From NCBI GenBank assembly GCA_963814585.1, contig CAWFDF010000003.1, positions 224,001-288,000 of the forward strand: DNA of 64,000 bases, given 5' to 3'. The notes under the pieces were generated by a model that saw only the letters and a program-made list of their open reading frames with translations, had not been told where the DNA came from and searched no databases. The translations under genes and the position numbers were made by a program. The stretch is from an uncultured delta proteobacterium. Lineage in GTDB: Bacteria; Myxococcota; Myxococcia; Myxococcales; Anaeromyxobacteraceae. Positions 19,068-48,693 of the stretch are shown piece after piece (within the stretch, counting starts at the first letter, position 1; the number at the start of each line of letters is the position of its first letter).

Positions 19068-19084
19068 CTGCGCTCCCTGGCCGC

Positions 19085-20416: not shown

Positions 20417-20436
20417 GGAGGGCCTCCACCCATCGG

Positions 20437-22955: not shown

Positions 22956-22957
22956 GT

Positions 22958-23782: not shown

Positions 23783-24927
23783 CACCGCCCTCCGCCCGAC
23801 CTGGCGGCGGGGAGCAGGCTCTCGACCAGCTCGGGGCTCCAGGGCGTGGCGCGGGCCAGGGCCTGCCGGAGGGCCACGAAGTCGGCCTCGCGGTCGTCCT
23901 TGGTCCCCTCGTTGAAGGCCCGGAAGCCGGTGCGCGCCTCGGTCATCATGTTGAGGGCCAGCCAGGCACGCGAGTTCTCCTTGTTGGCGGTCCAGGCCTG
24001 CAGCTTCGGCTTGCGCAGCTCCTCGATGGTCTTGGTGGTGCAGTCGGGGAAGGTGAGGAGCAGCTTGGCGCAGAGCTGCTCGACCCGCTCGTCGAGCATG
24101 GCCAGGTCCACGGTGCCGCGCTTCATGAGCTCCTTGCCCTCGGCCAGGGCCGTTCCGGTCTTGGGCTCCCCGTGGAGGTAGCGGCCGTACTCGTCGAGGA
24201 GGCGATCGGTCCAGACCAGCGGGTTGGCGACGTACTTCCCGTCGACCCGGAGGGCCGGGACCACGTCGCTGATCATCCCTTCCCGGTAGGCGCGGTGGGC
24301 CGACCACGGCTCGCAGAGCAGGCCGGTCTCCATGGCCCGCTCGCCGCCCAGCAGGACCGGGAGGAAGTCGGTGGCCCCGCCGATGGGCGCCGACCCGTGC
24401 TTCGGCCCGGCCTGCCCGAAGCGGGCCAGGTCCTGGGCGACGGAGAAGTCGCAGGCCATCCCGATCTCCTGCCCGCCGCCGATGCGCATGCCGTTGACGC
24501 GGCAGATCACCGGCTTGTCGCAGCCGAGGATGGCGCTCACCATGTCGTTGAAGAGCCGCATGTACTGCCGGTACTCCTGGGGATTCCCGGCGTAGTACTC
24601 GGCGTACTCCTTGGTGTTGCCGCCGGTGCAGAAGGCCTTGTCCCCGGCGCCGGTGAACACCACCGACACCACGTCACGCGCGCTGGAGGCCGCGCCGAAG
24701 GCCAGGATGACCGCCTTCACCATGTCGGTGGTGTAGGAGTTGTACTGGGCCTGGTTGTCGAGGACGATCCAGGCGTTGAAGAGCCCCGCCACCTCGGTCC
24801 CGTCGGGGCGGCGCGCCGGGCGCTTCTCGAAGCGCACGCCCACGCCGGCCGGCATGGGCGCCAGCTGGTGATCCCTGGCCTGGCTGGGCGCCGTCGATCG
24901 AATCACCTCTTCCGTCCTCTTCGACAT
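23782..24927 (-). CDS. oah: 6-oxocyclohex-1-ene-1-carbonyl-CoA hydrolase (Oah/BamA)
   Basis: QYNSYTT, AFCTGGNTKEYAEYY, GMRIGGGQEIGMACD, GPKHGSAP, NSRAWLALNM. Confidence 0.95.
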   Translation of the reverse strand: MSKRTEEVIRSTAPSQARDHQLAPMPAGVGVRFEKRPARRPDGTEVAGLFNAWIVLDNQAQYNSYTTDMVKAVILAFGAASSARDVVSVVFTGAGDKAFCTGGNTKEYAEYYAGNPQEYRQYMRLFNDMVSAILGCDKPVICRVNGMRIGGGQEIGMACDFSVAQDLARFGQAGPKHGSAPIGGATDFLPVLLGGERAMETGLLCEPWSAHRAYREGMISDVVPALRVDGKYVANPLVWTDRLLDEYGRYLHGEPKTGTALAEGKELMKRGTVDLAMLDERVEQLCAKLLLTFPDCTTKTIEELRKPKLQAWTANKENSRAWLALNMMTEARTGFRAFNEGTKDDREADFVALRQALARATPWSPELVESLLPAARSGGGR

Positions 24928-24944
24928 GTCGGGTCTCCGCGGGT

Positions 24945-26003
24945 TCAGGGGATGAGGATGGCGCGGCGGGAGAGCTTCTTCTGGTGGGCCAGGCCGAAGA
25001 CCGCGTTGGCCTCGGCCAGGGGATGGCGCTCGACGTACGGGGCGAGCTGGACCTTCCCGTCGAGGACCAGGTCGAGGGCGGCCGGGTAGAGCTCCGGCGC
25101 GCAGCCCCAGTTCCCCAGCGCCCGGGCGTGGAAGGCCATCAGGTTGGAGAGCCGCAGCTCGACCTTGTCCATGGTGAAGCCGACCACCGCCAGGGTGGCC
25201 CCGTGGACCAGCAGGCCCCAGGCCGTGAGCTGCCCGGCGGCGGTCCCGGAGCACTCGAAGATGGCCCACTCCCGCGCCGAGGCCCCGCTCTTCCTGGCGT
25301 GCTCCCCGATCTCCTTCTTGAGCGCTTTGGGATCGAGCAGCCTCGGGTTGAACCCGCGGGCCACCCCCCGGGACTCGAGCTGGTCGAGCCTGGCCTGGTC
25401 GACGTCGAGGGCCACCACCGTGGCCCCGAAGGCCCTGGCGATCTGCGCCGCGTAGGAGCCGACCCCGCCCACGCCGATGACGACGGCCAGGGTGCCGGCG
25501 GCGACGCCCGCCTGGACCACCGCCTGGTACGGGGTGGTCACCGCGTCGGCGACCACCGAGACGTCGGCCAGGGTCAGCCCGGCCCCGGCCAGCCGGGTCT
25601 CGTCGACGGCGCAGAGGCCGCGGGCGGGAACGGCGACGTGGGTGGCGAAGCCGCCGTGGATGTCGTTCCCGGGCATCTGCTGGGCGGGGCAGATGGTCCC
25701 CTTGCCACGCCGGCAGGCGTCGCACTGGCCGCACGGGATGACCGCCGGGACGATGACGGCGCGCCCCAGCCACGGCTCGGCGCCGGGCCCGGCGGCCGCC
25801 ACCCGGCCGCTGATCTCGTGGCCGAGCGCCAGCGGCAGCGCGTGGTTGGTCCTGACCCCGTCGTAGTAGAATCCGAGGTCGGTATGGCAGACCCCGCAGC
25901 CGGCGACCTCGACCCAGACGCCACCAGCCGGCGGCGCCTCCAGCGCCATCGGCTCCATGGCCAGCGGCTCGCCCGCCGCCCTCATCACCCAGCGATGCGC
26001 CAT
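24945..26003 (-). CDS. had: 6-hydroxycyclohex-1-ene-1-carbonyl-CoA dehydrogenase (Zn-ADH family)
   Basis: [51 protein letters not shown]. Confidence 0.93.
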
Positions 26004-26069
26004 GGCCTCGGCCTCCCCTGGTGAACCGCTCCCGGCAGCCCCCCGGTCAGGCCGGGACCCGGTCGCCGA

Positions 26070-26110
26070 TTGACTGGATCGATCTCAAAGTGGTAAACTA
26101 GTACCAGAAT
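26070..26110. promoter_or_regulatory. AT-rich divergent control region between had and gcdH: GTACCAGAAT core, TGGTA-N6-TACCA and TTGA-N11-TCAA inverted repeats
   Basis: ttgactggatcgatctcaaagtggtaaactagtaccagaat; the last 10 bp are identical to the core of the elements at 7700 and 35029. Confidence 0.6.
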
Positions 26111-26181
26111 CCAACGTTCGCCGTCAACGGTCGTCGTCCACCTGGTCCCGGGTCCCCCGGAACCACCCCGAGGAGGCCCGA

Positions 26182-27366
26182 GTGAGTGCCAGCGATCCCG
26201 TGTTCCGCTGGGAGGACGCGCTGCGGCTCGAGGACGAGCTCACCACCGAGGAGCGGCTGGTGCGCGACAGCGCCCGGGACTACTGCCGCGACCGGCTCAT
26301 GCCGCGGGTGCTCGAGGCCAACCGGCAGGAGCGCTTCGATCGCGAGATCCTCCGCGAGCTCGGCGAGCTCGGCATGCTCGGGCCGACCATCGAGGGGTAC
26401 GGCTGCGCCGGGGCCTCCCACGTGGCCTATGGCCTGGTGGCCCGGGAGGTGGAGCGGGTCGACTCCGGCTACCGCTCCGCCATGAGCGTCCAGTCCAGCC
26501 TGGTCATGCACCCCATCCACGCCTACGGCACCGAGGCGCAGCGGCAGAGGTACCTGCCGCCGCTGGCCCGCGGCGAGCTGGTCGGCTGCTTCGGCCTCAC
26601 CGAGCCCGACGCCGGGTCGGACCCGGGGAGCATGCGGAGCCGGGCCCGGAAGGTCGGCGACGGCTGGGTGCTCACCGGCACCAAGATGTGGATCACCAAC
26701 TCGCCCATCGCCGACGTCTTCATCGTCTGGGCCAAGGACGACGAGGGGGTGGTCCGCGGCTTCATCCTCGAGAAGGGGATGAAGGGGCTCTCGGCGCCCA
26801 CCATCGAGGGCAAGTTCAGCCTGCGAGCCTCGGTCACCGGCGAGATCGTCATGGACGAGGTGGCGGTCCCGGAGGCCCAGCGGCTCCCTGGCGCCTCCGG
26901 CCTGAAGGGGCCGTTCGGCTGCCTCAACAAGGCCCGCTACGGCATCGCCTGGGGTGCCCTGGGCGCCGCCGAGTTCTGCTGGCACGCCGCCCGGGCCTAC
27001 ACCCTGGACCGCAAGCAGTTCGGGCGGCCGCTGGCCGCCACCCAGCTGGTCCAGCTCAAGCTGGCCGACATGCAGACCGAGATCACCCTGGGGCTGCAGG
27101 CCTGCCTCCGCGTCGGGCGGCTCATGGACCGCCACGAGGCGACGCCGGAGATGGTCTCGCTCATCAAGCGCAACAGCGCCGGCAAGGCCCTGGCCATCGC
27201 CCGCCTCGCCCGGGACATGCACGGCGGCAACGGCATCTCCGACGAGTTCCACGTCATCCGCCACCTCATGAACCTGGAGTCGGTGAACACCTACGAGGGC
27301 ACCCACGACATCCACGCCCTCGTCCTGGGCCGGGCCCAGACCGGCATCCAGGCCTTCTCGACCTGA
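26182..27366 (+). CDS. gcdH: Glutaryl-CoA dehydrogenase (decarboxylating type)
   Basis: [46 protein letters not shown]. Confidence 0.93.
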
Positions 27367-27412
27367 GTCATCGAGGCGGGGGCCAGGGGCCCCTGCCAGC
27401 GGGAGCGTCCAC

Positions 27413-28600
27413 ATGGCCGAAGCCTGGATCGTCGACGCCGTCCGCACGCCCATGGGGCGCTACGGCGGGGCGCTGGCCGGCGTCCGCCCCGACGACCTCG
27501 GCGCCGTGGTGCTCCGCGCCCTCCTCGCGAGGACCGGCGTCCCCGCGGCGGACGTCGAGGACGTCTACCTCGGCTGCGCCAACCAGGCCGGCGAGGACTG
27601 CCGCAACGTGGCCCGGATGAGCTCGCTCCTGGCCGGCTACCCCATCGAGTCCGGCGCCTGCACCGTGAACCGGCTCTGCGGGTCCGGGCTCGAGGCGGTC
27701 GCCGCCGCGGCGCGCGCCGTCATGGCCGGCGAGGCCCACGTCTACGTCGGGGGGGGCGTCGAGTCGATGTCGCGCGCGCCCTGGGCCATGGCCAAGCCCG
27801 ACCGGGCGCTCCCCCGCGGCAACGCCACGGCCCACGACACCGCGCTCGGCTGGCGCTTCACCAACCCGGCCCTCGAGGCGCTCGGCCACACCGACTCGCT
27901 GGGCCAGACGGCCGAGAACCTGGCGGCCGAGCTCGGCATCTCCCGGCAGGCCCAGGACGCCTACGCCCTCCGCAGCCACCAGAAGGCGGTGGCGGCGCAG
28001 GACGCCGGCCACTTCGCCGCCGAGCTGGTCGGCGTGAAGGTGGAGGGTGGCGAGGTGACCGCCGACGAGGGGCCGCGGCGCGACACCACGCTGGAGCGGC
28101 TGGCCCGGCTCTCCGCCGCCTTCAGGAAGGGCGGCACCGTGACCGCCGGCAACTCCAGCACCCTCAACGACGGCGCCGCCGCCGTGCTGGTGGTCTCGGC
28201 GGACTACGCCCGGGCCCACGGCCTCGAGCCGCTGGCGCGCATCCGCTCGATCGCCGTGGCCGGCGTCCCGCCTCGGACCATGGGGATCGGCCCGGTCCCG
28301 GCCACCAGGAAGGCGCTGGCGCGCGCCGGGCGAACCCTGGCGGAGCTCCACCGCATCGAGCTCAACGAGGCCTTCGCGGCGCAGTCGCTGGCCGTCCTGG
28401 CCGGCTGGGAGCTCGAGGCCGACGACCCGCGGGTCAACGCCAGCGGCGGGGCCATCGCGCTCGGCCACCCCCTCGGCTGCTCGGGGGCCCGGCTGCTGGC
28501 GACGCTGGTCCACGGCCTGGTGCGGACCGGCCAGGCGCTCGGCCTGGCGACGATGTGCATCGGCGTCGGGCAGGGCATCGCCATGGTGGTGGAGCGGTAG
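27413..28600 (+). CDS. Acetyl-CoA C-acyltransferase (PcaF/PaaJ-like thiolase)
   Basis: CANQAGED, NRLCGSG, NEAFA, GHPLGCSG, MCIGVGQG. Confidence 0.9.
   Translation: MAEAWIVDAVRTPMGRYGGALAGVRPDDLGAVVLRALLARTGVPAADVEDVYLGCANQAGEDCRNVARMSSLLAGYPIESGACTVNRLCGSGLEAVAAAARAVMAGEAHVYVGGGVESMSRAPWAMAKPDRALPRGNATAHDTALGWRFTNPALEALGHTDSLGQTAENLAAELGISRQAQDAYALRSHQKAVAAQDAGHFAAELVGVKVEGGEVTADEGPRRDTTLERLARLSAAFRKGGTVTAGNSSTLNDGAAAVLVVSADYARAHGLEPLARIRSIAVAGVPPRTMGIGPVPATRKALARAGRTLAELHRIELNEAFAAQSLAVLAGWELEADDPRVNASGGAIALGHPLGCSGARLLATLVHGLVRTGQALGLATMCIGVGQGIAMVVER

Positions 28601-31185: not shown

Positions 31186-31189
<4 letters not shown>
30740..31189 (-). CDS. badM: Rrf2-family transcriptional regulator (BadM-like, no Cys)
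   Basis: ISVNHLSKVLRVL, RGAGGGY, VTLLDVIELFE; coupled downstream of a GNAT, as with badL-badM. Confidence 0.8.
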
Positions 31190-32982
<1,793 letters not shown>

Positions 32983-32993
32983 GGCCAGCTCCC

Positions 32994-34959
<1,966 letters not shown>

Positions 34960-35028
34960 GCATTCTCCTTCGCGCCGCGCGGGCGCGCTGGGTGCGCCGC
35001 GCCGGAGCGGCGGGGTCCAGGGATGGTG

Positions 35029-35131: not shown

Positions 35132-37411
35132 ATGCGGATCGTGATTCTCGGTGCTGGAGCGCTCGGCGGGCTCATCGGGGCCCGGCTGGGCGCGTCGGGC
35201 GAGGACGTCACCTTCCTCGAGACCAACGTGGCCCGCGCCAAGCTCCTCGGCGAGCAGGGGCTCTTCCTCTCCGAGTCGGACCGGGGCGAGCAGCACGTCC
35301 AGGTCAAGGTGGTCACCACGCTGGAAGGCGAGCCTCCCGCCGACCTGCTCTTCGTGGCGGTGAAGAGCTACCAGACCGAGGGCGCCATCCGCGCCGCCCT
35401 CCCGGTGATCGACGAGCGGACCTGGATCCTCTCCACCCAGAACGGCATCGGCAACGTCGACCGGATCAGGTCGGTGGTGGGCATCGGCCGCATCCTCACC
35501 GGGATCACCTTCCACTCCATCCAGCACACCGGCCCCAACCGGATGCGTTACCGGACCGGCATCAAGCCGGTCCAGATGGCGCCCCTCGACGGGACGATCA
35601 CCGACGAGGTGCGGGCCGTCGGCGAGGTCTTCTGCCGCGCCGGGATGGCCACCGAGGTCGTCGAGAGCGTCGACGCGGTGGTCTGGCAGAAGCTGGTGCA
35701 CAACGCCGTGGTCAACCCGATCTCGGCCCTCACCGGGATGACCTGCAGCGAGCTGCTCGAGGACGAGGACATGCAGGCGCTGATGCGCGGCCTCTGCCTC
35801 GAGACCGCCGAGGTGATGAAGGCCCGGGGCACGCCCCTGGAGGACCCCGAGGATCCCTACCGCCCCATCGTCCGGTCGCAGAAGGCGCTGGCCGCCAACC
35901 GCCCCTCCATGTGGCAGGACCTGGTCCGCGGCTTCCGCACCGAGATCGACGCCATGAACGGCGGCATCGTCGCCGAGGCGGAGCGGCTGGGGATGCGGGC
36001 GCCGCTCAACTGGGCCGTCGTCCAGCTGGTCCACTCCCGGGAGCGCCAGCAGCAGCGCCGCCAGGAGCGGGGCGCCCAGACCCTCGCCGAGGTGAAGGAG
36101 GTGCAGGCCAGGCTGCCCTCGCGACCGGTGGAGCGCGTCCCCTTCGCCGGGATGCCGCAGGGGCGGGTGCCCCTGGAGAGCGCGCCCCGGCTCAAGGAGA
36201 TCCTGAGCGGCTACTGGCGCGAGCTGGCCGAGGCCAGCCGCGGCCGGAACGTCGCCTGGTGCTCGACCCACGGCCCGGTGGAGATCGCCCGCGCGCTCGG
36301 CTACGTCCCCTACTTCCCGGAGAACCACGCCGCCCTCATCGGCGCCAGCCGGCTCACCGGGAAGTACATCCGGCTGGCCCTGGCCGACGGCTTCTCCCCC
36401 TTCGCCTCCAGCGAGATGGCCAGCGACGTGGGCGCCATGATGGCCGGGGAGACGCCGCTGGCCGGCCTCCACGGGCTCGACGGCGTGCCGCCCCCGGCGG
36501 TCCTGCTCTACAACACCAACGTCGGCACCTACGTGGCCCGCTGGTTCGAGTACTACGCCAACCGGCTCAGCGCCCCGCTGCTCGGCCTCCACCCGCCGCC
36601 GGCCCTCCACGACGTCGAGAAGATCGAGGTGGACGCCGCGGTCCAGCAGACGCTCCGGCTGGTCGACCGGCTCGAGGTGGTCTCCGGCCGGACCCTCGAC
36701 CAGGACCGGCTGGCCGAGGTGGTCGAGCGCTCGGCCCGCGCCGCCAAGCTCTGGGGCGAGATCCTCGACCTGGCCTGCCACACCCCCAGCCCCATCACCT
36801 ACTTCGACACCCTCATCCACGTGGCCCCCATGCTGCTGATGCGGGGGACGCAGGAGGCCATCAGCTACTACGAGATCCTGCTGGCCGAGCTCAAGCACCG
36901 CATCGCCGGGAAGATCGCCGCGGTGCCGGGCGAGCGGTTCCGCTTCTTCTGGGAGGGGGCGCCGGTCTGGTGCGCCCTGCGCCCGCTCGCCAGCCTCTTC
37001 CTCGACGAGGGCATCGCGGTGGTCGGCTCCTGGTACTCGCAGACCTACGCGCTGCAGGGGCTGCAGCGCGAGAACCCCATCGAGAGCATGGCGGCCGCCT
37101 ACACCTCCGTCTATCCGAACCGCTCCCGCGAGTACAAGGCCAAGTACCTGGCCCGCGAGTTCGCCCGTCACGCCGTGGACGCCGCCGTCTTCCACGACGC
37201 CCGGACCTCCCCGGAGCACAGCGCGGCGCGCTCCGGCCTCCACATCCGCCTGCGGCGCGACACCGGCGTCACGCCCATCGTCATCGAGGCCGACACCCAC
37301 GACTTGCGGCTGGTCTCGATCGACCACATCCGCTCCCAGCTCCGCGAGTTCGTGGAGCAGCGCCGGGCGGCGGCCGGCGGCAACGGGGTCCGCGAGACGG
37401 CCGCGCACTAG
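35132..37411 (+). CDS. Fusion: ketopantoate reductase (PanE/ApbA) domain plus a 2-hydroxyacyl-CoA dehydratase/BcrB-like subunit lacking its Fe-S cysteines
   Basis: N-terminal GAGALG, VKSYQ, QNGIG, WQKLVHNAVVNP, SMWQD, TEIDAMNG. The C-terminal half aligns along its length with 38218-39494 (VAWC, FPENH, FHDART). Confidence 0.85.
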   Translation: MRIVILGAGALGGLIGARLGASGEDVTFLETNVARAKLLGEQGLFLSESDRGEQHVQVKVVTTLEGEPPADLLFVAVKSYQTEGAIRAALPVIDERTWILSTQNGIGNVDRIRSVVGIGRILTGITFHSIQHTGPNRMRYRTGIKPVQMAPLDGTITDEVRAVGEVFCRAGMATEVVESVDAVVWQKLVHNAVVNPISALTGMTCSELLEDEDMQALMRGLCLETAEVMKARGTPLEDPEDPYRPIVRSQKALAANRPSMWQDLVRGFRTEIDAMNGGIVAEAERLGMRAPLNWAVVQLVHSRERQQQRRQERGAQTLAEVKEVQARLPSRPVERVPFAGMPQGRVPLESAPRLKEILSGYWRELAEASRGRNVAWCSTHGPVEIARALGYVPYFPENHAALIGASRLTGKYIRLALADGFSPFASSEMASDVGAMMAGETPLAGLHGLDGVPPPAVLLYNTNVGTYVARWFEYYANRLSAPLLGLHPPPALHDVEKIEVDAAVQQTLRLVDRLEVVSGRTLDQDRLAEVVERSARAAKLWGEILDLACHTPSPITYFDTLIHVAPMLLMRGTQEAISYYEILLAELKHRIAGKIAAVPGERFRFFWEGAPVWCALRPLASLFLDEGIAVVGSWYSQTYALQGLQRENPIESMAAAYTSVYPNRSREYKAKYLAREFARHAVDAAVFHDARTSPEHSAARSGLHIRLRRDTGVTPIVIEADTHDLRLVSIDHIRSQLREFVEQRRAAAGGNGVRETAAH

Positions 37412-37435: not shown

Positions 37436-38209
37436 ATGGTCGTGGCGGGCGCAGATCTCGGGACCGAGTGCGTGAAGACGGTGGTCGTGGACGGCGACGG
37501 CAAGGTCGTCGGCCGGGCCACGGTGCCGACGCGAGGCTACTTCCAGGACTGCTTCCAGGAGGCCACCGGGAACGCCCTCCGGGAGGCGCAGGTCCCGGCG
37601 GCGCAGCTGGCCGCCGTCTGCGTCACCGGCTTCGCCGCCTCCTGCGCGCCCATCGCCAGCCAGACGGTGGCCGAGACCCTCTGCCACGCCCGCGGCGCCT
37701 GGCACAAGACGGGGCGGGAGATGACCGTGGTGGACATCGGCGGCCGCGACCCCAAGGTCATCCACGTCGACGCCCGCGGCGCCGTCACCTCGAGCAGGTC
37801 GGTCCGGAAGTGCGCGGTGGGCATCGGCACCTTCCTCATGTTCGCCTCCCGGCACCTCGACGTGCACCCGACCCGGCTCATGGACCTGGCCTCCTCGGCG
37901 GAGAAGGCGGCGCCGGTGGGGAGCTACTGCTCGGTCTTCGCCGAGGTCGAGGTCATCGAGCTGCTGCGCCAGGGCTCCACGGCCGGCGAGATCGCGCTCG
38001 GGTGCATGCAGTCCATCGCCGACCGGATCCTCGAGATCGACCACTTCGAGAGCCCCATCTTCATCACCGGGGGCGTCTGCGAGTACTTCCCCGGCGTGGT
38101 GAAGGCGCTGGCCGACCGCTCCTCGCTCCCCGTCGAGATCCTCCCCGAGCCCATCCTGGCCGGGGCCTACGGCGCCGCCCTCTTCGCGCTCGACCAGGCC
38201 AGGGGCTGA
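37436..38209 (+). CDS. BadF/BadG/BcrA/BcrD (HgdC-type) activator ATPase, degenerate BcrD-like
   Basis: GADLGTECVK, ETLCHARG, DIGGRDPK, RKCAVGIG, SYCSVFAE. Confidence 0.85.
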   Translation: MVVAGADLGTECVKTVVVDGDGKVVGRATVPTRGYFQDCFQEATGNALREAQVPAAQLAAVCVTGFAASCAPIASQTVAETLCHARGAWHKTGREMTVVDIGGRDPKVIHVDARGAVTSSRSVRKCAVGIGTFLMFASRHLDVHPTRLMDLASSAEKAAPVGSYCSVFAEVEVIELLRQGSTAGEIALGCMQSIADRILEIDHFESPIFITGGVCEYFPGVVKALADRSSLPVEILPEPILAGAYGAALFALDQARG

Positions 38210-38217: not shown

Positions 38218-39494
38218 ATGGCCACCACCGACCGCCCGTCCCGCGCCCCCGACGCCACCTTCAGCGCCTCGGCCCGGCTCAAGGAGCTGATGGCCGCCCA
38301 CTTCGCCGGCGTGGACCGCGCCGCGCGCGAGAATCCGCCCCGGTGGCCTGGTGCACGAGCGTCGGCCCGGTCGAGCTGCTCCGCGCGCTCGGCTTCGAGG
38401 TCTTCTTCCCCGAGAACCACGGCGCCCTGCTCGGCGCCTCGCGCGTCGCCGGCGAGGTCATGGGCCGGGCCCACGCCCTCGGCTACTCGCCCGACATCTG
38501 CTCCTACCTGACCAGCGACATCGGCGCCTACCTGGCCCGCAAGAGCCCGCTCTCGCGCTTCGGCCTCTCCGGCGCCCCGCGCCCGGACCTCCTCCTCTAC
38601 AGCACCAACCAGTGCCGCGAGGTCCGCGACTGGTTCGAGTTCTACGGGCGCGAGTGGAGCGTCCCGGTGGTCGGGGTCACGTCGTTCCGCGATCTCGGCG
38701 AGGTGGAGGACTCCCACGTCGACGCCATCACCCGGCAGCTCGAGGGGCTGGTGCCGGCGCTGGAGGCGGTGGCCGGGCGCCGGCTCGAGGGCGCCGCGCT
38801 CGAGCTGGCGGTGGGCCACTCGCGGACCTGCAGCGACCTGTGGCGCGATTGCCTGGGGTCCTCGGCCTCCCGCCCGGCGCCGCTCTCCTTCTTCGACGCC
38901 ACCATCCAGATGGGGCCGGCGGTGGTCCTGCGCGGCACGCCCGAGGCCTGCGACTACTACCGGCTCCTCAGTTCCGAGCTGGCCGGGCGCGTCGCCTCGG
39001 GACACGGCGCCCTGCCCCGCGAGCGGTTCCGGCTCTACTGGGACGGCATGCCGATCTGGGGCCGGCTGCGCGACCTGGCCTCGCTCTTCGCCGGGCTGGA
39101 GACCAGCGTGGTGGCCTCGACGTACTGCAACAGCTGGGTCTTCGACGCCCTCGACCCGCGCGATCCGCTGCGCTCCATGGCCCGCGCCTCGCTCGAGCTC
39201 TTCATCGCCCGCTCCGAGGGGCCCAAGCAGCGCTACCTGGCGCGGATGGCCCGCGAGTTCTCGGTCGACGGCCTGGTCTTCCACGACGCCCGGACCTGCC
39301 CCAACAACTCCAACGTCCGCTTCGGCCTGGCCCAGCGCCTGCGGCGCGCTTCCCACCTCCCGGTGCTGGTGCTGGACGGCGACCTCAACGACCTGCGCTG
39401 CTTCTCCGACGAGCAGGCCCGGACCAACGTCGAGGCCTTCGTCGAGCAGCTCGAGGACGCCAGGCCAGCCGCCGCCGGCGGGGGGCGCCCGTGA
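38218..39494 (+). CDS. 2-hydroxyacyl-CoA dehydratase/BcrB-like subunit with intact Cys ligands (frameshift near 38335)
   Basis: FPENHG, PDICSYL, TNQCRE, DARTCPN, LDGDLND, TNVEAFVE; ATG at 38218 after GAGGAGG. Confidence 0.85.
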
Positions 39495-40285
39495 GCGCCG
39501 GCCCCTGCTGGATCGGGGTCGACTCGGGCTCCTGGAACACCAAGGCGGCCCTGGTGGACGCCGGGGGCCGGCTGGTGGCCACGGCCATCGTCCGCACCGG
39601 CGCCGACGTCCGGGCCGCCGCCGAGCGGGTGGTCCACGAGCTCCTCGAGCGCGCCGCCGTCGATCGCTCGTCGGTGGCCGCCCTCTGGACCACCGGCTTC
39701 GGGCGCCACGCCATCCCCGACGCCGCCAGCTCGCGCACCGAGCTGGATGCCCACGCCCGGGGGGCCCTCCAGTACGTCTCCGGGCCGCTCACCGTCATCG
39801 ACATCGGCGGGCAGGACGCCAAGATCATCACCGTGGACGCCGGGGGCCGTCGCACCTCGCACAAGATGAACCGGAAGTGCGCGGCCGGGACGGGGAGCTT
39901 CCTCGAGGAGATGGCGCTCCGGCTCGACGTGCCCATCGGGGCGCTCCCGGCGCTGGCCGCGGGCGCGCAGGAGGAGATCGAGCTGGGGAGCTTCTGCACC
40001 GTCTTCACCGGGACCGAGGTCCTCGGGCTCATCCGCCAGGGGAAGCGGCCGGCCGACCTGGCCCGGGCCGCCTACCGCTCGGTGGTCAAGCGGGTGCTGG
40101 AGATGGAGCGGGTCGAGGGGACCGTGGTGGCCACCGGCGGCGTCGTCTCCCACCACCCGCTGGTGGTGGAGCTGCTGGAGCTGGCCCTCGGCAGCCGGGT
40201 CATCGTGCCCCAGTTCGCGCAGGAGATCGGCGCCGTGGGCGTGGCCCACGCCGCCCGCGCCGCCGCCAGCGCCACCGCCGCCTGA
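39491..40285 (+). CDS. Second HgdC/BcrA-type activator ATPase
   Basis: GVDSGSWNTK, TGFGR, DIGGQDAK, MNRKCAAGTGSFL, SFCTVF. Confidence 0.88.
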   Translation: MSAGPCWIGVDSGSWNTKAALVDAGGRLVATAIVRTGADVRAAAERVVHELLERAAVDRSSVAALWTTGFGRHAIPDAASSRTELDAHARGALQYVSGPLTVIDIGGQDAKIITVDAGGRRTSHKMNRKCAAGTGSFLEEMALRLDVPIGALPALAAGAQEEIELGSFCTVFTGTEVLGLIRQGKRPADLARAAYRSVVKRVLEMERVEGTVVATGGVVSHHPLVVELLELALGSRVIVPQFAQEIGAVGVAHAARAAASATAA

Positions 40286-40293: not shown

Positions 40294-41859
40294 ATGCACC
40301 AGCTCCTCAACATCGGCGAGATCATCACCGTCCACGCCCGGCTCCAGCCGGATCGCCCGGCGGTGCGGGATCTCTCCCGGGCCCTGACCTGGGCGCAGTA
40401 CGAGGCGCGGGCCACCCGGCTGGCCAACGCCCTCCTCGGCCTCGGGCTCCGCCCGGGCGACCGGGTGGCCGTCTACGCCCACAACGGCCTGGAGTGGCTG
40501 GAGCTCTACGCCGCCTGCGCCAAGGCCGGCCTGGTCGCCGTGCCGGTCAACTTCCGGCTCGCCCTCCCGGAGGTCCGCTACCTCGTCGAGGACAGCGGCG
40601 CCGCCGCCCTCTTCGTCGGCGCCGACCTGGTCGAGGCCGTCGGGCCATTGCGCGACACGCTGGGCCTCCCCGGCGGCCGCTGGATCCAGATCGGCGGCGA
40701 ACGGCTCCAGGCCGGCTACCGCGGCTACGAGGAGCTGCTGGCCACCGGCACCGACCGTCCGCCCGCCGTCAGCGTCCGCCCCGAGGATCCCTGGACGCTG
40801 ATGTACACCTCGGGGACGACCGGGAGGCCCAAGGGGGCCATCCGCAGCCACCGCAGCTACGCGCTCTTCTACCTCCTCAACGCCATCGAGTTCGGCTTCA
40901 CCCGCGACGACGTGGGGCTGGCGGTCATGCCGCTCTGCCACGTGAACTCGGTCTTCTACGGCTTCGTGTTCACCTACCTGGGGGCCCAGGTCTGCGTCTA
41001 CGACCGCAAGAGCTTCGACCCCGAGCACCTGCTGCGGGTGCTGGCCGAGGAGCGGATCAGCTTCACCTCGCTGGTCCCCACCCACTACACCATGATGCTG
41101 GGCCTCCCCGAGGCGGTCCGCACCGCTCGCGACCTCGGCCACGTGGACAAGCTCCTCATCTCCTCGGCGCCGGCGCGCCGCGACACCAAGCTGGCCATCA
41201 TGTCCTGCTTCCCCTCGTCGCGGCTCTTCGAGGCCTACGGCTCCACCGAGGCCGGGCTGGTCACGCTGCTGCGCCCCGAGCAGCAGTTCGACAAGCTCGG
41301 CTCCATCGGCCGCGAGATCGTGGGCACCGGCCGGCTCCGGCTCCTCGACGAGGGCGGCGCCGAGGTGGCCGACGGGGAGGTCGGCGAGCTCTGGGCCCGG
41401 ACGCCGACCGCCTTCGACGGCTACTGGAACCTCCCCGAGGCCACCGCCCGCGCGCTGCGCGGCGGCTACTGCACCGCCGGCGACCTGGCCCGGCGCGACG
41501 GCGACGGCTTCTACACGCTGGTCGATCGCAAGAGCAACATGATCATCACCGGCGGCGAGAAGGTCTACCCCTCCGAGGTGGAGAAGGTGCTGGCCAGCCA
41601 CCCGGACGTCCGCGACGTCGCGGTCATCGGGCTGCCGGACGCCACCTGGGGCGAGGCGGTCACCGCGGTGGTGGTGGTGCGGCCGGGCTCGGCGCCGTCC
41701 ACGGAGGCGCTGGTGGCGCTGACCCGCCGCGAGCTGGCCGGGTACAAGTGCCCGCGGCGGATCCGCTTCATCGCCGACGAGGAGATGCCCCGGACCGCCA
41801 CCGGCAAGATCCTGCACCGCGTGCTCCGGGACCGGTACGCGGCGCCGGAGGGCGCGTGA
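40294..41859 (+). CDS. AMP-forming acyl-CoA ligase (FadD/aryl-propanoate ligase-like)
   Basis: YTSGTTGRPKG, AYGSTE, TAGDL, DRKSNMIITGGEKVYP, TGKI. Confidence 0.9.
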   Translation: MHQLLNIGEIITVHARLQPDRPAVRDLSRALTWAQYEARATRLANALLGLGLRPGDRVAVYAHNGLEWLELYAACAKAGLVAVPVNFRLALPEVRYLVEDSGAAALFVGADLVEAVGPLRDTLGLPGGRWIQIGGERLQAGYRGYEELLATGTDRPPAVSVRPEDPWTLMYTSGTTGRPKGAIRSHRSYALFYLLNAIEFGFTRDDVGLAVMPLCHVNSVFYGFVFTYLGAQVCVYDRKSFDPEHLLRVLAEERISFTSLVPTHYTMMLGLPEAVRTARDLGHVDKLLISSAPARRDTKLAIMSCFPSSRLFEAYGSTEAGLVTLLRPEQQFDKLGSIGREIVGTGRLRLLDEGGAEVADGEVGELWARTPTAFDGYWNLPEATARALRGGYCTAGDLARRDGDGFYTLVDRKSNMIITGGEKVYPSEVEKVLASHPDVRDVAVIGLPDATWGEAVTAVVVVRPGSAPSTEALVALTRRELAGYKCPRRIRFIADEEMPRTATGKILHRVLRDRYAAPEGA

Positions 41860-42359
41860 AGGAGAGCCTTCGCTTCGTCGTCAACGGCGACCCGGTCGAG
41901 GTGGCGGTCGAGCCCGGCACCACGCTCCTCGAGTGCCTGCGCCAGGAGCTGGGCCTGACCGGCTCGAAGCAGGGCTGCGACAAGGGCGACTGCGGCGCCT
42001 GCACCGTGCTCCTCGACGGGCGCGCCGTCCTCTCCTGCCTCACCCTGGCCCACGCGGTGGCGGGCCGGCAGGTGACGACCGTCGAGGGGCTGGCCGCCGC
42101 CGGCCGGCTCCACCCGCTCCAGGAGGCCTTCGACACCCAGGGGGCGGCCCAGTGCGGCTTCTGCACGCCGGGGATGCTGATGAGCGCCTCCGCGCTGCTC
42201 GAGGAGAACGCCCGGCCGACCCGCCAGGACGTCCGCGAGGCGCTGGCCGGCAACCTCTGCCGCTGCACCGGCTACACCAAGATCCTGGACGCCGTGGTGA
42301 AGGCCGCCGGCGAGATCCGCGGGGCGCGCGCCGCGCCGCGGGACGGGGGCGAGCCGTGA
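41856..42359 (+). CDS. hcrC: 4-hydroxybenzoyl-CoA reductase gamma subunit (2 x [2Fe-2S])
   Basis: KQGCDKGDCGACT, QCGFCTPG, GNLCRCTGY. Confidence 0.85.
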   Translation: MKESLRFVVNGDPVEVAVEPGTTLLECLRQELGLTGSKQGCDKGDCGACTVLLDGRAVLSCLTLAHAVAGRQVTTVEGLAAAGRLHPLQEAFDTQGAAQCGFCTPGMLMSASALLEENARPTRQDVREALAGNLCRCTGYTKILDAVVKAAGEIRGARAAPRDGGEP

Positions 42360-44714
42360 GCGCCGCGCCGCCCGGCGGGCCCGACGGCACGGGGAGCGGC
42401 GCGGGCGCCGCCTTCTCCGTCATCGGCAAGCGCAACCGGAAGGTCGACGGCCGGCGCAAGGTCACCGGCCAGGCCATCTTCACCGACGACCTGCAGCCGG
42501 CCCGGCTGCTCCACGGCAAGATCCTCCGCTCGCCCCACGCCCACGCCCGCATCCGCGCCATCGACACCGCGCCGGCGGCGGCCCTCCCCGGCGTCCACGC
42601 CGTCATCACCGGGCGCGACCTGCCGGTGCCCTACGGCATCATCCCCTGGACCCAGGACGAGTACCCGCTGGCCGTCGACAAGGTGCTCTACGTCGGCGAC
42701 GGGGTGGCGGCGGTGGCGGCCGACGACGAGCGGACCGCCGAGGCGGCGCTCGACCTCATCGTGGTCGACTACGAGGTGCTGCCGGCGGTCCTGACCGTGG
42801 AGGACGCGCTGGCCCACCCCGAGACCCAGGTGAACGCCTTCGCCGGGAAGGGGAACGTCTCCAAGCACGTCCGGCTCAGCTTCGGCGACGTCGAGGGCGG
42901 GCTGGCCGGAGCCGACGAGGTGGTGGAGGACACCTGGTTCCACGCCGGGACGACGCACGCCGCCATCGAGCCGCACTGCGCGGTGGGCGACCTGGGGGCC
43001 GACGGCCTGCTCACCGTCCACTCCAGCACCCAGGTGCCCCACTACCTGCACCGCGAGCTGAGCCGCGTGCTCGAGCTCCCGGTCGACCGCATCCGCGTGA
43101 TCCAGCCGGCGGTCGGCGGCGGCTTCGGCGGCAAGAGCGAGCCCTTCGACCTCGAGTTCGCGGCGGCCAAGCTCTCCTGCTCACCGGCCGGCCGGTGAAG
43201 ATGCTCTACACCCGCGAGGAGGTCTTCTCCGCGCACCGCGGCCGCCACCCGATGCAGATGCGCTACCGGGTCGGCGCCCGCCGCGACGGCACGCTCACCG
43301 CGGTCGAGGCCCGGATCCAGATCGACGGCGGGGCCTACTCCTCCTTCGGCCTGGTGACCACCTACTACTCGGGGCAGCTCCTCGGCGCGCCCTACCGGCT
43401 CCCCGCCTACGAGTTCGACTCGACGCGGGTCTTCACCAACAAGCCCTCCTGCGGCCCCAAGCGCGGCCACGGCTCGGTGCAGCCACGCTTCGCCTTCGAG
43501 GTGCGCTCGACGAGCTGGCCGACCGGCTCGGGCTCGACCCCATCGAGCTGCGACGCCGCAACGTCCTCGGGCCGGACACCCGCACCGTGAACGAGTTCCG
43601 GATCACCTCCAACGGCTTCCTGGAGTGCCTGGCCGGGGTCGAGCGGGCCTCCGGCTGGAAGGAGAAGTTCCGGCGGCTGCCCTACGGCCGCGGGGTCGGC
43701 GTGGCCGGCTCCATGTACATCTCCGGCACCAACTACCCCATCTACCCCAACGAGATGCCGCAGTCGGCGGTGCAGCTCAAGGTGGACCGCTCCGGCCGGG
43801 TCACCGTCTTCACCGGCGTCAGCGACATCGGCCAGGGCTGCGACTCGGTGCTGGCCTACATCGTGGCCGAGGAGCTCGGGGTGGCGCTCGACTCGATCCG
43901 GGTCGTCAGCGCCGACACCGATCTGACCCCGGTGGACCTGGGCGCCTACTCGTCCCGCATCACCTTCATGGTCGGCAACGCCGCCATCGCCGCCTGCGCC
44001 GGGGTGAAGCGCCGGATCCAGGAGGCCCTGGCCGAGCTCTGGACCGTCCCGCCCGGGCAGGTCCGGCTCGCCGACGGCCTCGCCACGGCGCCGGGCAGCC
44101 CCGCGCACGCCCTCCCCATCGCCGAGGCCTTCCAGGCCGCCGAGGCGCGCTTCGGCACCCTCGGCGGGGTCGGCTCCTACGACACGCCCAAGGACGTCCA
44201 CGGCAGCTATCGCGGCGCCACCATCGGCGCCTCGCCGGCGTACTCCTTCAGCGCCCACGTCGCCGAGGTCGACGTCGACGACGAGACCGGGCAGGTCCGG
44301 GTCAGGAAGATCTGGGTGGCCCACGACTGCGGCCGCGCCCTCAACCCCATGCTGGTCGAGGGGCAGATGGAGGGGAGCGCGGCCATGGGCTTCGGCGAGG
44401 CCATCCTCGAGGAGCAGGCCTACGACGGGCGCGGCCTCCACCGGGGCCCTTCCCTGCTCGACTACCCGCTGGCGACCACGCTCGACACCCCCGAGCTGGA
44501 GTCGATCATCGTCGAGAGCGGCGACCGGGAGGGCCCGTACGGCGCCAAGGAGGCCGGCGAGGGGCCGCTCCACCCGTCCATCCCGGCCATCGCCAACGCC
44601 ATCCACGACGCCGTGGGCGTCCGGCTGACGCGCCTGCCGTTCCAGCCGCCGCGCGTGCTGGCCGCGCTCGAGGCCCGGCGCCAGGCCGGCTTGACCTGGA
44701 AGGGGCGACGCTGA
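42356..44714 (+). CDS. hcrA: 4-hydroxybenzoyl-CoA reductase alpha subunit (molybdenum cofactor; frameshifts near 43177 and 43505)
   Basis: ILRSPHAHARI, GGGFGGK, GPKRGHG, DIGQG, GAYSSRITFMVG, VEGQMEG, YGAKEAGEG. Confidence 0.82.
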
Positions 44715-45751
44715 TGCTGCCGCTCCCTCCCCTCCGCCACCTGGCTCCCCGGCACCTCCACGAGGCGCTGGCGCTGCTCGAGGAGGGCAGCCGCGGCCGG
44801 ACCACGCCGGACGGCGACGGGGCCGGGCGGCGCGGGCCGGTCCTCCCCATCGCCGGCGGCACCGACCTGGTGCCCAACCTGAAGCACCGGCTCCTCGACG
44901 TGGAGCTGCTCGTCGACCTGACCCGGCTCGAGGATCCCCACCTCCGCGGGATCCGCGAGGTGGCGGGGAGCCTCCACCTGGGCGCGCTCACCTCGCTGGC
45001 CGACGCCGCGGCCGATCCGCTGCTGCGCGCCCGCCACCCGGTGCTGGCCGGCGCCTACCGCCAGATCGGCTCGCCGCAGCTCCGCAACATGGGGACGGTG
45101 GGAGGCAACCTCTGCCTCGACACCCGCTGCAGCTACGTCAACCAGAGCGCCTTCTGGCGGGCGGCGCTCGGCCACTGCCTGAAGCGCAAGGGCACGGCGT
45201 GCCACGTGGTGCCCGGCGGCACCCGCTGCGTCGCCGCCAGCAGCTCGGACGGCGCGGCCCTGCTCACCGCGCTCGGCGCCGAGGCCCGCGTCGAGGGCAG
45301 GGCCTCGGAGCGCTGGACCCCGGTGGAGGCGCTGTTCCTCGGCGAGGGGCGGCGGCACCTGGCCCTGGCCCCCGGGGAGCTGGTCACCGAGCTGCGCCTC
45401 CCGGCGGCGCCGCCGGGCCGGCGCGCCGCCTACGAGAAGCTCCGGCTGCGCGAGGCCATCGACTTCCCGCTGCTCTCGGTGGCGGCCGTCGCCGACCTGG
45501 GGCCGGCCGGCGCCTGCCGGTCGCTGCGGGTGGTGGTCTCCGCGCTCGGCGCGCGCCCGCGGGTCGTCACCGGCCTCGGCGCCCTCGCCGAGGGCAGGCC
45601 CCTCGACGACGAGGCGCTGGAGCGGGTCGCCGCGGAGGCACATCGCCAGTGCCACCCGCTGGCCAACATCACCGCGGACCCGGCGTGGCGCCGGGCCATG
45701 GTGCCGGTGCTGGTCCGGCGGGCGCTGCGCCGGGCCCTGGGGGGATCGTGA
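44714..45751 (+). CDS. hcrB: 4-hydroxybenzoyl-CoA reductase beta subunit (FAD plus extra [4Fe-4S])
   Basis: AGGTDLVPNLK, QLRNMGTVGGNL, and the diagnostic Cys insert RCSYVNQS.FW...CLK...CHV...C. Confidence 0.88.
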   Translation: MLPLPPLRHLAPRHLHEALALLEEGSRGRTTPDGDGAGRRGPVLPIAGGTDLVPNLKHRLLDVELLVDLTRLEDPHLRGIREVAGSLHLGALTSLADAAADPLLRARHPVLAGAYRQIGSPQLRNMGTVGGNLCLDTRCSYVNQSAFWRAALGHCLKRKGTACHVVPGGTRCVAASSSDGAALLTALGAEARVEGRASERWTPVEALFLGEGRRHLALAPGELVTELRLPAAPPGRRAAYEKLRLREAIDFPLLSVAAVADLGPAGACRSLRVVVSALGARPRVVTGLGALAEGRPLDDEALERVAAEAHRQCHPLANITADPAWRRAMVPVLVRRALRRALGGS

Positions 45752-46665
45752 CCGGCCCCGGTGACGAGCGCGAGGGACCGGGCGGCGCCGAAGGTGGCCG
45801 CGGCGACGACGTCTACGAGGCCCTGGCGCGGGCCCGGCGAGAGCGCGTCCCGGCGGTGCTGGCGACCGTGGTCGAGGTGGCCGGCTCCACGCCGCAGGCC
45901 CCCGGCGCCAAGCTCCTCCTCCTCTCCACCGGACCGGCGATCGGGACCGTCGGCGGCGGGGCCGTCGAGCACCGCGTCCTGGAGGAGGCGCGGGCCATGC
46001 TCGCGCCCGGCGGCCCGGCCCGGCGCCTCGCCGTCTACGAGCTCTCCCGGGACCTCGGCATGTGCTGCGGGGGACGGATGAGGATCTTCCTGGAGCGGAT
46101 CGAGCCGGCGGCCCGGCTCCTGCTCTTCGGCGCCGGCCACGTCGGCCGGGCCATCTGCGCGGCGGCGTCCCGCGCCGGGTTCGAGGTGACGGTGGTCGAC
46201 GAGCGGGAGGCGTGGACGGCCCCCGGCCAGCTGCCGTCGGCGCGGCGGGTCCTCTGCGAAGAGCCCGCCGCCGCGGTGGCCGAGCTCCGGCCCGACGCCG
46301 CCACGGCGTGCGTCGTGGCCACCCACGCCCACGCCATCGACCAGGCCACCGTGAAAGCGCTGCTGGCGACGCCGGCCGCCTTCGTCGGGATGATCGGCAG
46401 CCGCCGCAAGCGGGACAGGTTCCTCCAGCGGCTCTCCGCGCAGGGCGCGTCGCCGGCGCAGCTGGCCCGGCTCCGCACGCCCCTCGGGCTGGACATCGGC
46501 GCGGTCACGCCGGAGGAGATCGCGGTCAGCGTCGTCGCCGAGCTGGTGGCGGTCCGGCGCGGACGGCCGGTGGACCGGTCCGGTCGCCGCGAGGAGCCGG
46601 CTCCTGAGGTCCCGGCGTTGCGGCTGCTCCCGGCCGCCGGCTGGCCGGATCAGGAGGGCGGGTGA
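45748..46665 (+). CDS. xdhC: XdhC/CoxI molybdenum-cofactor insertion chaperone
   Basis: GSTPQAPGAK, GTVGGGAVE, GMCCGG, GMIGSRRK, TPEEIAVS. Confidence 0.88.
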   Translation: MTGPGDEREGPGGAEGGRGDDVYEALARARRERVPAVLATVVEVAGSTPQAPGAKLLLLSTGPAIGTVGGGAVEHRVLEEARAMLAPGGPARRLAVYELSRDLGMCCGGRMRIFLERIEPAARLLLFGAGHVGRAICAAASRAGFEVTVVDEREAWTAPGQLPSARRVLCEEPAAAVAELRPDAATACVVATHAHAIDQATVKALLATPAAFVGMIGSRRKRDRFLQRLSAQGASPAQLARLRTPLGLDIGAVTPEEIAVSVVAELVAVRRGRPVDRSGRREEPAPEVPALRLLPAAGWPDQEGG

Positions 46666-47279
46666 GCGTCGCCGCCGTCGTCCTCGCCGCCGGGGCGTCC
46701 AGCCGGATGGGATCGCCCAAGCCGCTCCTCGAGCTCCAGGGCGAGACCTTCCTCGGCCGCATCCTCCGGACCCTCGCGGCGGCGGAGGGCGTCGGTGACC
46801 GGATCGCCGTGCTCGGCCACCAGTCGGCCCGGGTCCGGCAGGGCGTCGGCCTCGCCGGCGCCCGCGCGGTCACCTGCCGGAGCTGGCGGCGGGGGATGCT
46901 GGCGTCGCTCCGCTGCGGCGTCCGCGCCGCGCTGGAGGCGGACCCGGGGCTGCCGGCCGTGCTGGTCTGCCACGTCGACCAGCCCCTCCTCCGGGCCGCC
47001 ACCGCCGCCAGGCTGGTGGGCGCCTTCCGCGCCGGACGGGGTGACGTCCTGGTCGCCACCCATGGCGGCCGCCCCGGGCACCCGGTCCTGCTGGCCCGTG
47101 GCTTCCTCGACCGGCTCCTGGCCGACCGCGGGGTCGAGTCGCTGGCCGCGGCCATCGCCCGGCACGCCCGCCGCCGGGTCGAGGTGGCATGCCGGGACGC
47201 CGCCGTGACGCAGAACATCAATACCAAGGAGGCCCTGGCCGCACTCGAGGTGCAGTTGTCGATTCCCAAGGCGTGTTGA
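46662..47279 (+). CDS. mocA: Molybdenum cofactor cytidylyltransferase (MocA-like)
   Basis: VLAAGASSRMG.PK, GMLASL, DQP, GHPVL; next to an MCD-dependent enzyme. Confidence 0.8.
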   Translation: MSVAAVVLAAGASSRMGSPKPLLELQGETFLGRILRTLAAAEGVGDRIAVLGHQSARVRQGVGLAGARAVTCRSWRRGMLASLRCGVRAALEADPGLPAVLVCHVDQPLLRAATAARLVGAFRAGRGDVLVATHGGRPGHPVLLARGFLDRLLADRGVESLAAAIARHARRRVEVACRDAAVTQNINTKEALAALEVQLSIPKAC

Positions 47280-48628: not shown

Positions 48629-48693
48629 TTGACTTCCCGACCCGGATCCACCTAGATCCGGACCACTTCGTGGCAAAAAGTGGCAGGAAGTGG
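48629..48693 (+). promoter_or_regulatory. dcw promoter with three MraZ-binding repeats
   Basis: TTGACT at 48629, TAGATC at 48653, then GTGG at 48670, 48680 and 48690 (10-bp period). Confidence 0.75.

Follow-up and report, generated by a model that had tools for sequence, protein, structure and literature searches.

A 64,000-nucleotide stretch of DNA from an uncultured delta proteobacterium of the Anaeromyxobacteraceae (GenBank assembly GCA_963814585.1, contig CAWFDF010000003.1, positions 224,001 to 288,000 of the forward strand; hereafter the window) carries at 35132-37411 a gene in which a PanE/ApbA-fold reductase is fused in frame to a domain of the HGD-D family, here called B'. The fusion is genuine and conserved, and it belongs to a seven-gene module that further comprises a divergent activator ATPase (A'), an intact alpha-type subunit (B), a canonical activator ATPase (A), a CoA ligase, a dehydrogenase-hydratase and a thiolase. 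We hypothesize, on a case that we regard as evenly balanced, that the fused reductase would supply an (R)-2-hydroxy acid to a radical dehydratase formed by B', B and the two activators, such that the module would act as an arylpyruvate/aryllactate feeder into the benzoyl-CoA pathway. The parts of the module are the following.

35132-37411, + strand: PanE/ApbA-fold reductase and HGD-D fusion gene, a single open reading frame of 759 amino acids without a stop
35132..36043, + strand: PanE/ApbA-fold 2-oxoacid reductase domain, residues 1-304 (Pfam, NCBIfam, alignment)
36044..36166, + strand: in-frame linker, about residues 305-345 (conservation, GC content at third codon positions, contig coverage)
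36167..37411, + strand: B', an HGD-D domain (HadB/BcrB alpha-type) without the three catalytic-cluster cysteines (alignment)
37436..38209, + strand: A', divergent activator ATPase (BcrAD_BadFG)
38218..39494, + strand: B, alpha-type subunit, intact apart from a one-base assembly error near 38332; catalytic Glu and five invariant cysteines present
39491..40285, + strand: A, canonical activator ATPase
40294..41859, + strand: AMP-forming CoA ligase, module-specific, nearer to FadD5 and feruloyl-CoA synthetase than to benzoate-CoA ligase
32994..34960, - strand: 3-hydroxyacyl-CoA dehydrogenase/enoyl-CoA hydratase fusion, module-specific, divergent from the PanE fusion; one-base assembly error at 34157
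31700..32982, - strand: thiolase, module-specific; two frameshifts here, intact in relatives; left end approximate

The fusion protein matches ApbA (residues 3-152), ApbA_C (181-303) and HGD-D (380-743), all above Pfam gathering scores, in agreement with a first, sequence-only reading of the window that had noted one in-frame open reading frame of ~760 amino acids. NCBIfam models place it above the cut-off of apbA_panE (TIGR00745; 239 bits against 141) and far below those of HadB (143 bits) and BcrB (113 bits). The same reading had put an intact linker at about 36040-36175 and had pointed to this domain architecture as the feature to look for in homologues. All three domains are present in 117 of the 120 best of 398 homologues (identity 56-94%), the other three being without the N-terminus, and an ESM Atlas cluster of 77 members carries the same three families. 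The linker proves to be in frame and uninterrupted as described, and its extent is adjusted to about residues 304-345 on the basis that the HadB-like fold begins near residue 341-354. It is less conserved than its surroundings (mean column agreement 0.59 versus 0.75-0.79 within the domains), closes with a conserved GGMPSGRVPLE motif, and keeps a third-codon-position GC content of 0.97-1.00 in each 30-codon block. Assembled contigs from two sequencing runs (X numbers; L numbers denote loci, P numbers protein clusters, and G000 the genome carrying the window) cross it without a gap: one from X1, possibly the source sample itself, spans 35737-36785 with 2 differences, and one from X5, a separate study, spans 36064-36328 with 7. 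This comparison also revealed one-base indels at 34157 and 38332, in the genes flanking the fusion; these frameshifts are assembly errors, and the linker is free of such. An assembly or frameshift artefact as the source of the fusion is thus ruled out by the linker composition, the homologues and the gap-free contigs. RNA contigs cover the fusion gene in short pieces only (X15, 35216-35446; X16, from relatives).

A scan with the PanE half listed at least 38 genome and at least 18 metagenome loci at 54% identity or more, the remaining rows standing at 39% or less. Among these 56 listed loci, 50 are fused, 2 are cut by a contig end and 4 (L041, L048, L106, L110) hold PanE alone, so that the finding which the sequence-only reading had considered fatal to its proposal, all close homologues being two separate genes, did not arise; unfused PanE remains in the same operons. 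By record title the loci belong to Myxococcota, Gemmatimonadota, Acidobacteriota, Ca. Eisenbacteria, Ca. Krumholzibacteriota, Fibrobacteraceae and Planctomycetota, metagenome-assembled genomes (MAGs) in every case, and at least six phyla carry the fusion. The closest named relatives of the window are Anaeromyxobacter sp. MAGs, and its DNA is found in freshwater sediment runs.

What kind of reductase is the PanE half? The GAGALG motif, the Lys of WQKL and the Glu of TEID, recognized at the outset, lie at residues 7-12, K187 and E271. Relative to E. coli PanE, the protein keeps K187 (K176), N191 (N180), N195 (N184), N256 (N241), S259 (S244), E271 (E256) and also N104, and these active-site residues are invariant or near-invariant over 121 sequences. 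The features of the PanE fold are therefore all present (ApbA and ApbA_C, GxGxxG, active-site Lys, Glu, Asn and Ser). Those of a ketopantoate reductase proper are not: the domain scores below every equivalog cut-off and above the subfamily model only, and of V179, N194 and N241, which we take to be the pantoate pocket residues in E. coli, N241 is kept while Cys205 stands for N194 (121/121) and His190 for V179 (119/119). The database label "2-dehydropantoate 2-reductase" is thus an annotation in need of correction. Position 30 is acidic in 118/118 sequences (Glu in 115, Asp in 3); an acidic residue ending the second strand confers a preference for NADH, and by Glu30 the PanE half is likely of the NADH type. 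PanE-fold enzymes that act as NADH-dependent D-2-hydroxyacid dehydrogenases have been reported (10.1101/2024.01.05.573888). Identity within this subfamily is ~55% and to sequences outside it at most 37%. In a quick tree, fused and stand-alone members form a single clade (branch length 2.36, support 100) whose stand-alone members include one group of 25 rows (support 92) and 3 rows lying within fused ones, a picture that would suit fusion and fission in either order. Another PanE above the TIGR00745 cut-off is encoded in G000, on contig C8.

The sequence-only reading had called the C-terminal half a dehydratase/BcrB-like subunit. The HGD-D family assignment stands, but that reading did not note that the domain lacks the cluster cysteines. 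The catalytic copy lies in another gene, two genes downstream (38218-39494), whose product B is 43% identical to B'. At the three positions of the HadB and B cluster cysteines, B' has Ser, Gly and Ser. Among 121 fusions, 104 have no cysteine at these positions, 17 have one and none has two or three; two of the sites lack it in 121/121, and the third has it in 17/121. Retained are Glu397, at the position of HadB Glu55 (120/121), as well as Cys377 and Cys614, and B' is as conserved as the reductase half. Because Glu397 and high conservation are maintained, B' is under selection while being, to judge from its ligand positions, unable to hold the catalytic cubane. By comparison, B keeps the three cluster ligands and the catalytic Glu (33/33 and 35/35; aligned to HadB C84, C117, C346 and E55) and has five invariant cysteines (35/35). 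The first extra cysteine also occurs in MbdO and some canonical alpha subunits; only the second marks the clade. A quick tree built from 56 selected rows unites B' and B in a single clade (SH-aLRT 100) separate from canonical alpha subunits and BcrB, with B' as a single group, a topology that identifies B' as a probable old duplicate of B. The best solved relative of B is HadB (166 bits, versus 97 for BzdO and 93 for MbdO), and both proteins remain far from the reductase profiles (BcrB: B 119 and B' 113 bits, cut-off 487; BzdO: 80 and 51 bits, cut-off 449). P0411 (413 aa), a stand-alone relative of B that falls outside the B' group, likewise has none of the three catalytic-cluster cysteines but retains both extra cysteines, so a second loss of the cluster may have occurred.

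No gene for a beta subunit of the HadC/BcrC type is found in the module at any of the 56 listed loci, and bcrC-like genes stand only beside canonical alpha subunits or Bcr. Nine genomes in which B-A is not placed immediately behind the fusion were checked, and all 9 carry B elsewhere. Another two genomes, of unstated completeness and with PanE on its own, hold B and A, and no B' or A' is found among their 7 and 10 HGD-D matches; for this reason B can probably work without B', and such genomes suggest a B homodimer, as in DCCP. Unfused B' was not seen among the 56 listed loci. Stand-alone B' was also rejected as a common form, the 230-734-aa matches being mostly short-contig or partial sequences and the inspected clusters P0128 and P0064 also holding 762-aa full members.

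Both activators keep the two cluster cysteines (A' 44/44, A 31/31), and in A' the second phosphate loop is changed from DIGGQDAK to DIGGRDPK. The best PDB match of A' is MbdQ, and A' follows the fusion in every listed locus that reaches that far. By analogy, A'/A looks like an unequal pair of the BcrD/BcrA kind.

Two further blocks of the window bear on the metabolic setting.

41856..47279, + strand: 4-hydroxybenzoyl-CoA reductase-like hcrC, hcrA (frameshifted) and hcrB, then xdhC and mocA; often linked, not module-specific
18255..28600: central benzoyl-CoA pathway, with two activator-type genes, bcrB, bcrC, dch, oah, had, an acyl-CoA (likely glutaryl-CoA) dehydrogenase and a thiolase

The module tracks this pathway among related genomes. 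The fusion is present in 14 of 61, B in the same 14, and all 14 fall within the 24 genomes that are positive for BcrB above cut-off; none of the 37 BcrB-negative genomes carries the fusion. The dehydrogenase-hydratase and the thiolase each occur in 13 of the 14 fusion genomes versus 1 of the 10 fusion-less BcrB genomes, and the ligase in 13 of 14 versus 0 of 10; these three genes therefore track the module rather than the core pathway. The counts are to be read as a pattern and not as a test, as kin are not independent and linked genes move together. Five genomes reached via their loci (one identical to G056) have BcrB within ~16 kb of the module, above cut-off in four and split in the fifth. 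The ligase has FadD5 (307 bits) and feruloyl-CoA synthetase (266) as top PDB matches, compared with 158 bits for benzoate-CoA ligase, and the slot after A holds either of two different AMP-forming ligases or an ADP-forming one, depending on the locus; three unrelated ligase forms in the same place imply a free-acid substrate. No match to TIGR02262, the benzoate-CoA ligase family, is found in G000 and five module-bearing congeners, despite Bcr and Hcr-like genes, and no phenylphosphate carboxylase above cut-off in G000, so another source of aroyl-CoA is needed. Two candidates for module-specific partners were rejected: the molybdenum enzyme, missing in G027 and present in fusion-less genomes, and IOR, since 35 of 36 members of the source genome's bacterial family have such a gene.

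A fundamental question is how these parts would work together. From the fusion, the ligand loss in B', the cysteines of B, the shared origin of B' and B, and the co-occurrence, all of them observed, we infer every chemical step of the following scheme. Reduction of phenylpyruvate or 4-hydroxyphenylpyruvate with NADH would give the aryllactate, which the ligase would convert to aryllactyl-CoA. The A'/A ATPase pair would then put an electron into the cluster of B, where elimination of water would yield cinnamoyl- or coumaroyl-CoA. The hydratase-dehydrogenase and thiolase would release acetyl-CoA and benzoyl- or 4-hydroxybenzoyl-CoA, at which point the Hcr-like enzyme and Bcr would take over. As a dimer partner without catalytic function, B' would tether the reductase to the complex, and it may still bind a CoA ester. 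The overall chain would thus run from R-CH2-CO-COOH to R-CO-CoA and acetyl-CoA via the reductase, the ligase, the HadB-like subunit and one round of beta-oxidation. R would most simply be phenyl or 4-hydroxyphenyl because the module co-occurs with benzoyl-CoA reductase and often runs into Hcr-like genes; the relation of the ligase to feruloyl-CoA synthetase and the IOR-like and phenylacetate-CoA ligase-like genes nearby also fit an aryl substrate. Seven relatives have an IOR-like gene at a distance of up to ~30 kb from the module, and the window has one in pieces. A 3-aryllactate route described for Clostridia equals the first half of this chain (PMC5897657), and conversion of phenylpyruvate via cinnamoyl-CoA to benzoyl-CoA, with the dehydratase unassigned, has been hypothesized for a sulfate reducer that degrades benzene (PMC13416013).

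That the reductase works with the dehydratase system is further argued by P0391 (728 aa, a single sequence from a Myxococcota MAG), in which a PanE only 23% identical to that of the window is joined to an intact five-cysteine B in an independent fusion. Of the two roles first proposed, a 2-oxoacid reductase tethered to a dehydratase complex gains support from this protein, from the long-branch PanE subfamily and from the shared operons of unfused members. The other, pantoate synthesis gated by acyl-CoA, fares poorly given the separate PanE of G000 and the replacement throughout of E. coli pantoate-pocket residues.

Among known systems, the module would be most like the Clostridial ones in its working, namely the phenyllactate system of Clostridium sporogenes (FldH, FldA, FldBC, FldI) and the 2-hydroxyisocaproate system of Clostridioides difficile (LdhA, HadA, HadBC, HadI; PDB 3o3m). 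HadB is the best solved relative of B and of B'. Shared with the pathway described in PMC5897657 are the NADH-dependent 2-oxoacid reductase, the enzyme for CoA activation, the HGD-D dehydratase (its three cluster cysteines and catalytic Glu found here in B) and the ASKHA activator. The module differs in having a fused reductase of the PanE fold, a ligase instead of the class III CoA transferase, two additional invariant cysteines in B and two distinct activators, and in a product that would enter the benzoyl-CoA pathway by beta-oxidation instead of undergoing reduction to an arylpropionate. In place of a HadC-type beta subunit the partner is a cluster-less alpha duplicate, and because there is no beta subunit and B' is without ligands, the module falls outside the two-component type; BzdNO and HadBC have clusters in both subunits (PMC11971306, PMC7317905).

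With class I benzoyl-CoA reductases (BcrCBAD; BzdNOPQ, 8s02; MbdONPQ, 9g87 and 9gai) the module shares the HGD-D and ATPase families, four subunits, two unequal ATPases and the same gene island. It differs in that B and B' fall far below the BcrB and BzdO cut-offs, the BcrC/BzdN electron-storage subunit is lacking, the asymmetry stems from a separate duplication and canonical Bcr is encoded apart; by score it is not a reductase of this class. BzdO His131 was discarded as a marker separating reductases from dehydratases, as MbdO has Phe there. B also recalls DCCP (6eno/7yyl), matching five of the six ligand positions of the seven-cysteine motif (PMC7317905). Of these, the fifth and last align directly, and the N-terminal three were assigned from their spacing and via HadB. 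B has no counterpart of the sixth motif cysteine, Glu replaces the non-ligand Cys94, and the profile scores differ widely (HadB 232 versus DCCP 44 bits). By its number of cysteines B is no DCCP, and a double cubane, or a larger cluster with a non-cysteine ligand, is a candidate only. Finally, the PanE half shares its fold and Lys/Asn/Ser/Glu set with ketopantoate reductase and the PanE-fold D-2-hydroxyacid/D-mandelate dehydrogenases (Lactococcus PanE, an Enterococcus enzyme, Pseudomonas KPR2), from which it differs as a separate subfamily with its own invariant pocket residues that is usually fused. A literature search, with subscription journals mostly outside its coverage and supplements unread, found no description of the fusion or the module.

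Several points weigh against the arylpyruvate reading. A B'/B dimer is an assumption because B'-A' occurs without B-A directly behind it in 11 listed loci. Linkage and kinship make the co-occurrence overstate the case, and G063 and G064, fragmentary MAGs with the module, yielded no class I reductase subunit. Lack of benzoate-CoA ligase does not distinguish module genomes (8 of 14) from the other BcrB genomes (4 of 10), and benzoate or 4-hydroxybenzoate may be substrates of the module ligase itself. IOR-like genes, as noted, are near-universal in the family. The dehydrogenase-hydratase and thiolase could serve crotonyl-CoA or another product. Outside the source family the genes usually run in the order Mo enzyme, TetR, thiolase, BadI/Oah-like hydrolase, short-chain dehydrogenase/reductase (SDR), hydratase, fusion, A', B, A, ligase and had-like gene, so that the fusion stands between an enoyl-CoA hydratase and the had-like gene, near the hydrolase and SDR; neighbours of this ring-cleavage type, found in other phyla, also fit a ring pathway that is lower or parallel.

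These neighbours lead to an alternative hypothesis, unlikely in our judgement, in which the same chemistry acts on a 2-oxo/2-hydroxy dicarboxylate left by ring cleavage of a hydroxylated benzoyl-CoA such as 3-hydroxybenzoyl-CoA. PanE would reduce the 2-oxo end, the ligase would activate the product, dehydration by B would give a CoA ester of the glutaconyl type, and the sequence would be completed by the dehydrogenase-hydratase and thiolase. A had-like gene at 36 of the 56 listed loci and the common upstream hydratase, BadI/Oah-like hydrolase and SDR speak for it, as does the HcrA-like Mo enzyme, which is below cut-off (773-910 versus 995 bits) and may act on another hydroxyaroyl-CoA. By alignment, invariant polar and basic residues line the PanE pocket (H190, S249, K255 and R257: His, Ser and basic), and these could hold a second carboxylate, a further point against an aryl substrate. 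In the source family, however, the module is self-contained and has no extra dch, had or oah, the ligase resembles phenylpropanoid and fatty-acid ligases, and more steps must be assumed.

It is quite unlikely that these genomes have in B'-A'-B-A a second aryl-CoA reductase of class I, arisen by its own duplication and acting on a substituted ring, with PanE as a side redox step. Four subunits and a heterodimer-like activator pair would mirror BcrCBAD, A' has MbdQ as its best PDB match, had/dch/oah-like genes are neighbours, and B, with five cysteines and Gly at the position of BzdO Trp46, could hold a larger electron-storing cluster. Nevertheless, B is nearer to HadB than to any reductase subunit, canonical Bcr is already encoded in these genomes, and repeated fusion to a 2-oxoacid reductase would be left unexplained; in addition, B' could not bind the electron-storage cluster that BzdN supplies (PMC11971306).

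Slightly less probable still is dehydration of non-aromatic 2-hydroxy acids, from branched-chain or other amino acids, in a module placed near bcr by shared regulation only. HadB is the nearest solved relative, and known PanE-fold, NADH-dependent D-2-hydroxyacid dehydrogenases take branched-chain 2-oxo acids (10.1101/2024.01.05.573888). Against it stand the 37 BcrB-negative relatives, none with the module, and a separate canonical set in G000 (C9:49077-54119: HadC-like, three-cysteine HadB-like and activator genes, beside acyl-CoA dehydrogenases and a 2-oxoacid oxidoreductase). Lastly, a true ketopantoate reductase switched by an acyl-CoA-binding B' and supplying CoA is very improbable: the TIGR00745 score, a cluster-less yet highly conserved B', as a sensor might be, and the CoA binding of some ketopantoate reductases mentioned in 10.1101/2024.01.05.573888 would suit it, whereas the C205 and H190 replacements, the absence of a pan gene among annotated neighbour proteins in a subset of loci, the housekeeping PanE elsewhere in G000 and the junction of PanE to an intact B in P0391 do not, the last two being the reason that a tethered reductase fits far better.

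Returning to the arylpyruvate reading, a fuller form of it can be offered tentatively. A five-cysteine B would carry more than one cubane without a beta subunit, its metal-free duplicate would bear the reductase and the ATPase would be a heterodimer, together forming one arylpyruvate-to-cinnamoyl-CoA complex that would give uncultured bacteria of sediments and soils, from many phyla, an undescribed oxidative route to benzoyl-CoA from phenylalanine and tyrosine. We consider this version doubtful as a whole.

The loci and the remainder of the window hold additional features. A hemerythrin gene stands behind the had-like gene at L045:17483-18118 and other Gemmatimonadota loci (11 listed loci), perhaps for oxygen protection or sensing on behalf of Fe-S enzymes, and two 2-oxoacid:acceptor oxidoreductase gene sets lie directly behind the had-like gene at L033:7059-12348. 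At L051:2341-5172 and similar loci the HcrA-like Mo subunit is fused to the 2Fe-2S subunit (~935 aa) and the shorter FAD subunit scores as XdhB, not HcrB; this Mo enzyme may not be a true reductase. A tungsten aldehyde-oxidoreductase-family gene is conserved in L105:2983-4920 (- strand), G061 and G062 (81-84% identical among these); its identification as the class II reductase BamB was ruled out (AOR 309 versus BamB 222 bits). In the window, a GNAT acetyltransferase and an Rrf2 regulator follow in tandem after the thiolase (30743-31671, - strand; also in L023), a pair that resembles BadL/BadM of Rhodopseudomonas. The region 7755-16530, next to the bcr operon, holds the frameshifted pieces of IOR-like genes, two phenylacetate-CoA ligase-like genes below cut-off, a small gene and branched-chain-type ABC transporter genes. 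A gene like DpgC, the (3,5-dihydroxyphenyl)acetyl-CoA dioxygenase (29081-30592, + strand; 422 bits, cut-off 530), occurs in this otherwise anaerobic aromatic island and is absent from the corresponding place in L023. One-base frameshifts at 42356-44714, 31700-34960 and 38332 affect the hcrA-like gene twice, the thiolase twice, the dehydrogenase-hydratase and B, and two of them are the contig-proven assembly errors. To the right of the island, 48690-64000 carries a division and cell wall cluster (mraZ, rsmH, ftsL/ftsI-like and mur genes), recognized by eye from translations.

What this analysis contributes is the phylogenetic profile, P0391 as an independent fusion of PanE to B, the genomes that hold B and A only and the contig check of the linker. 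PMC11971306 describes the evolution of the BCR/HAD radical-enzyme family as a loss of sub-clusters from a double cubane. To this series the module adds two states that we did not find described, a five-cysteine subunit and a zero-cysteine, cluster-less one. If the arylpyruvate reading is true, many uncultured Myxococcota, Gemmatimonadota, Acidobacteriota and candidate-phylum bacteria would obtain benzoyl-CoA from aromatic amino acids without the phenylacetate/phenylglyoxylate route, which is the textbook one. The module would then likely feed phenylalanine and tyrosine carbon into the oxygen-free breakdown of aromatic rings in uncultured sediment bacteria.

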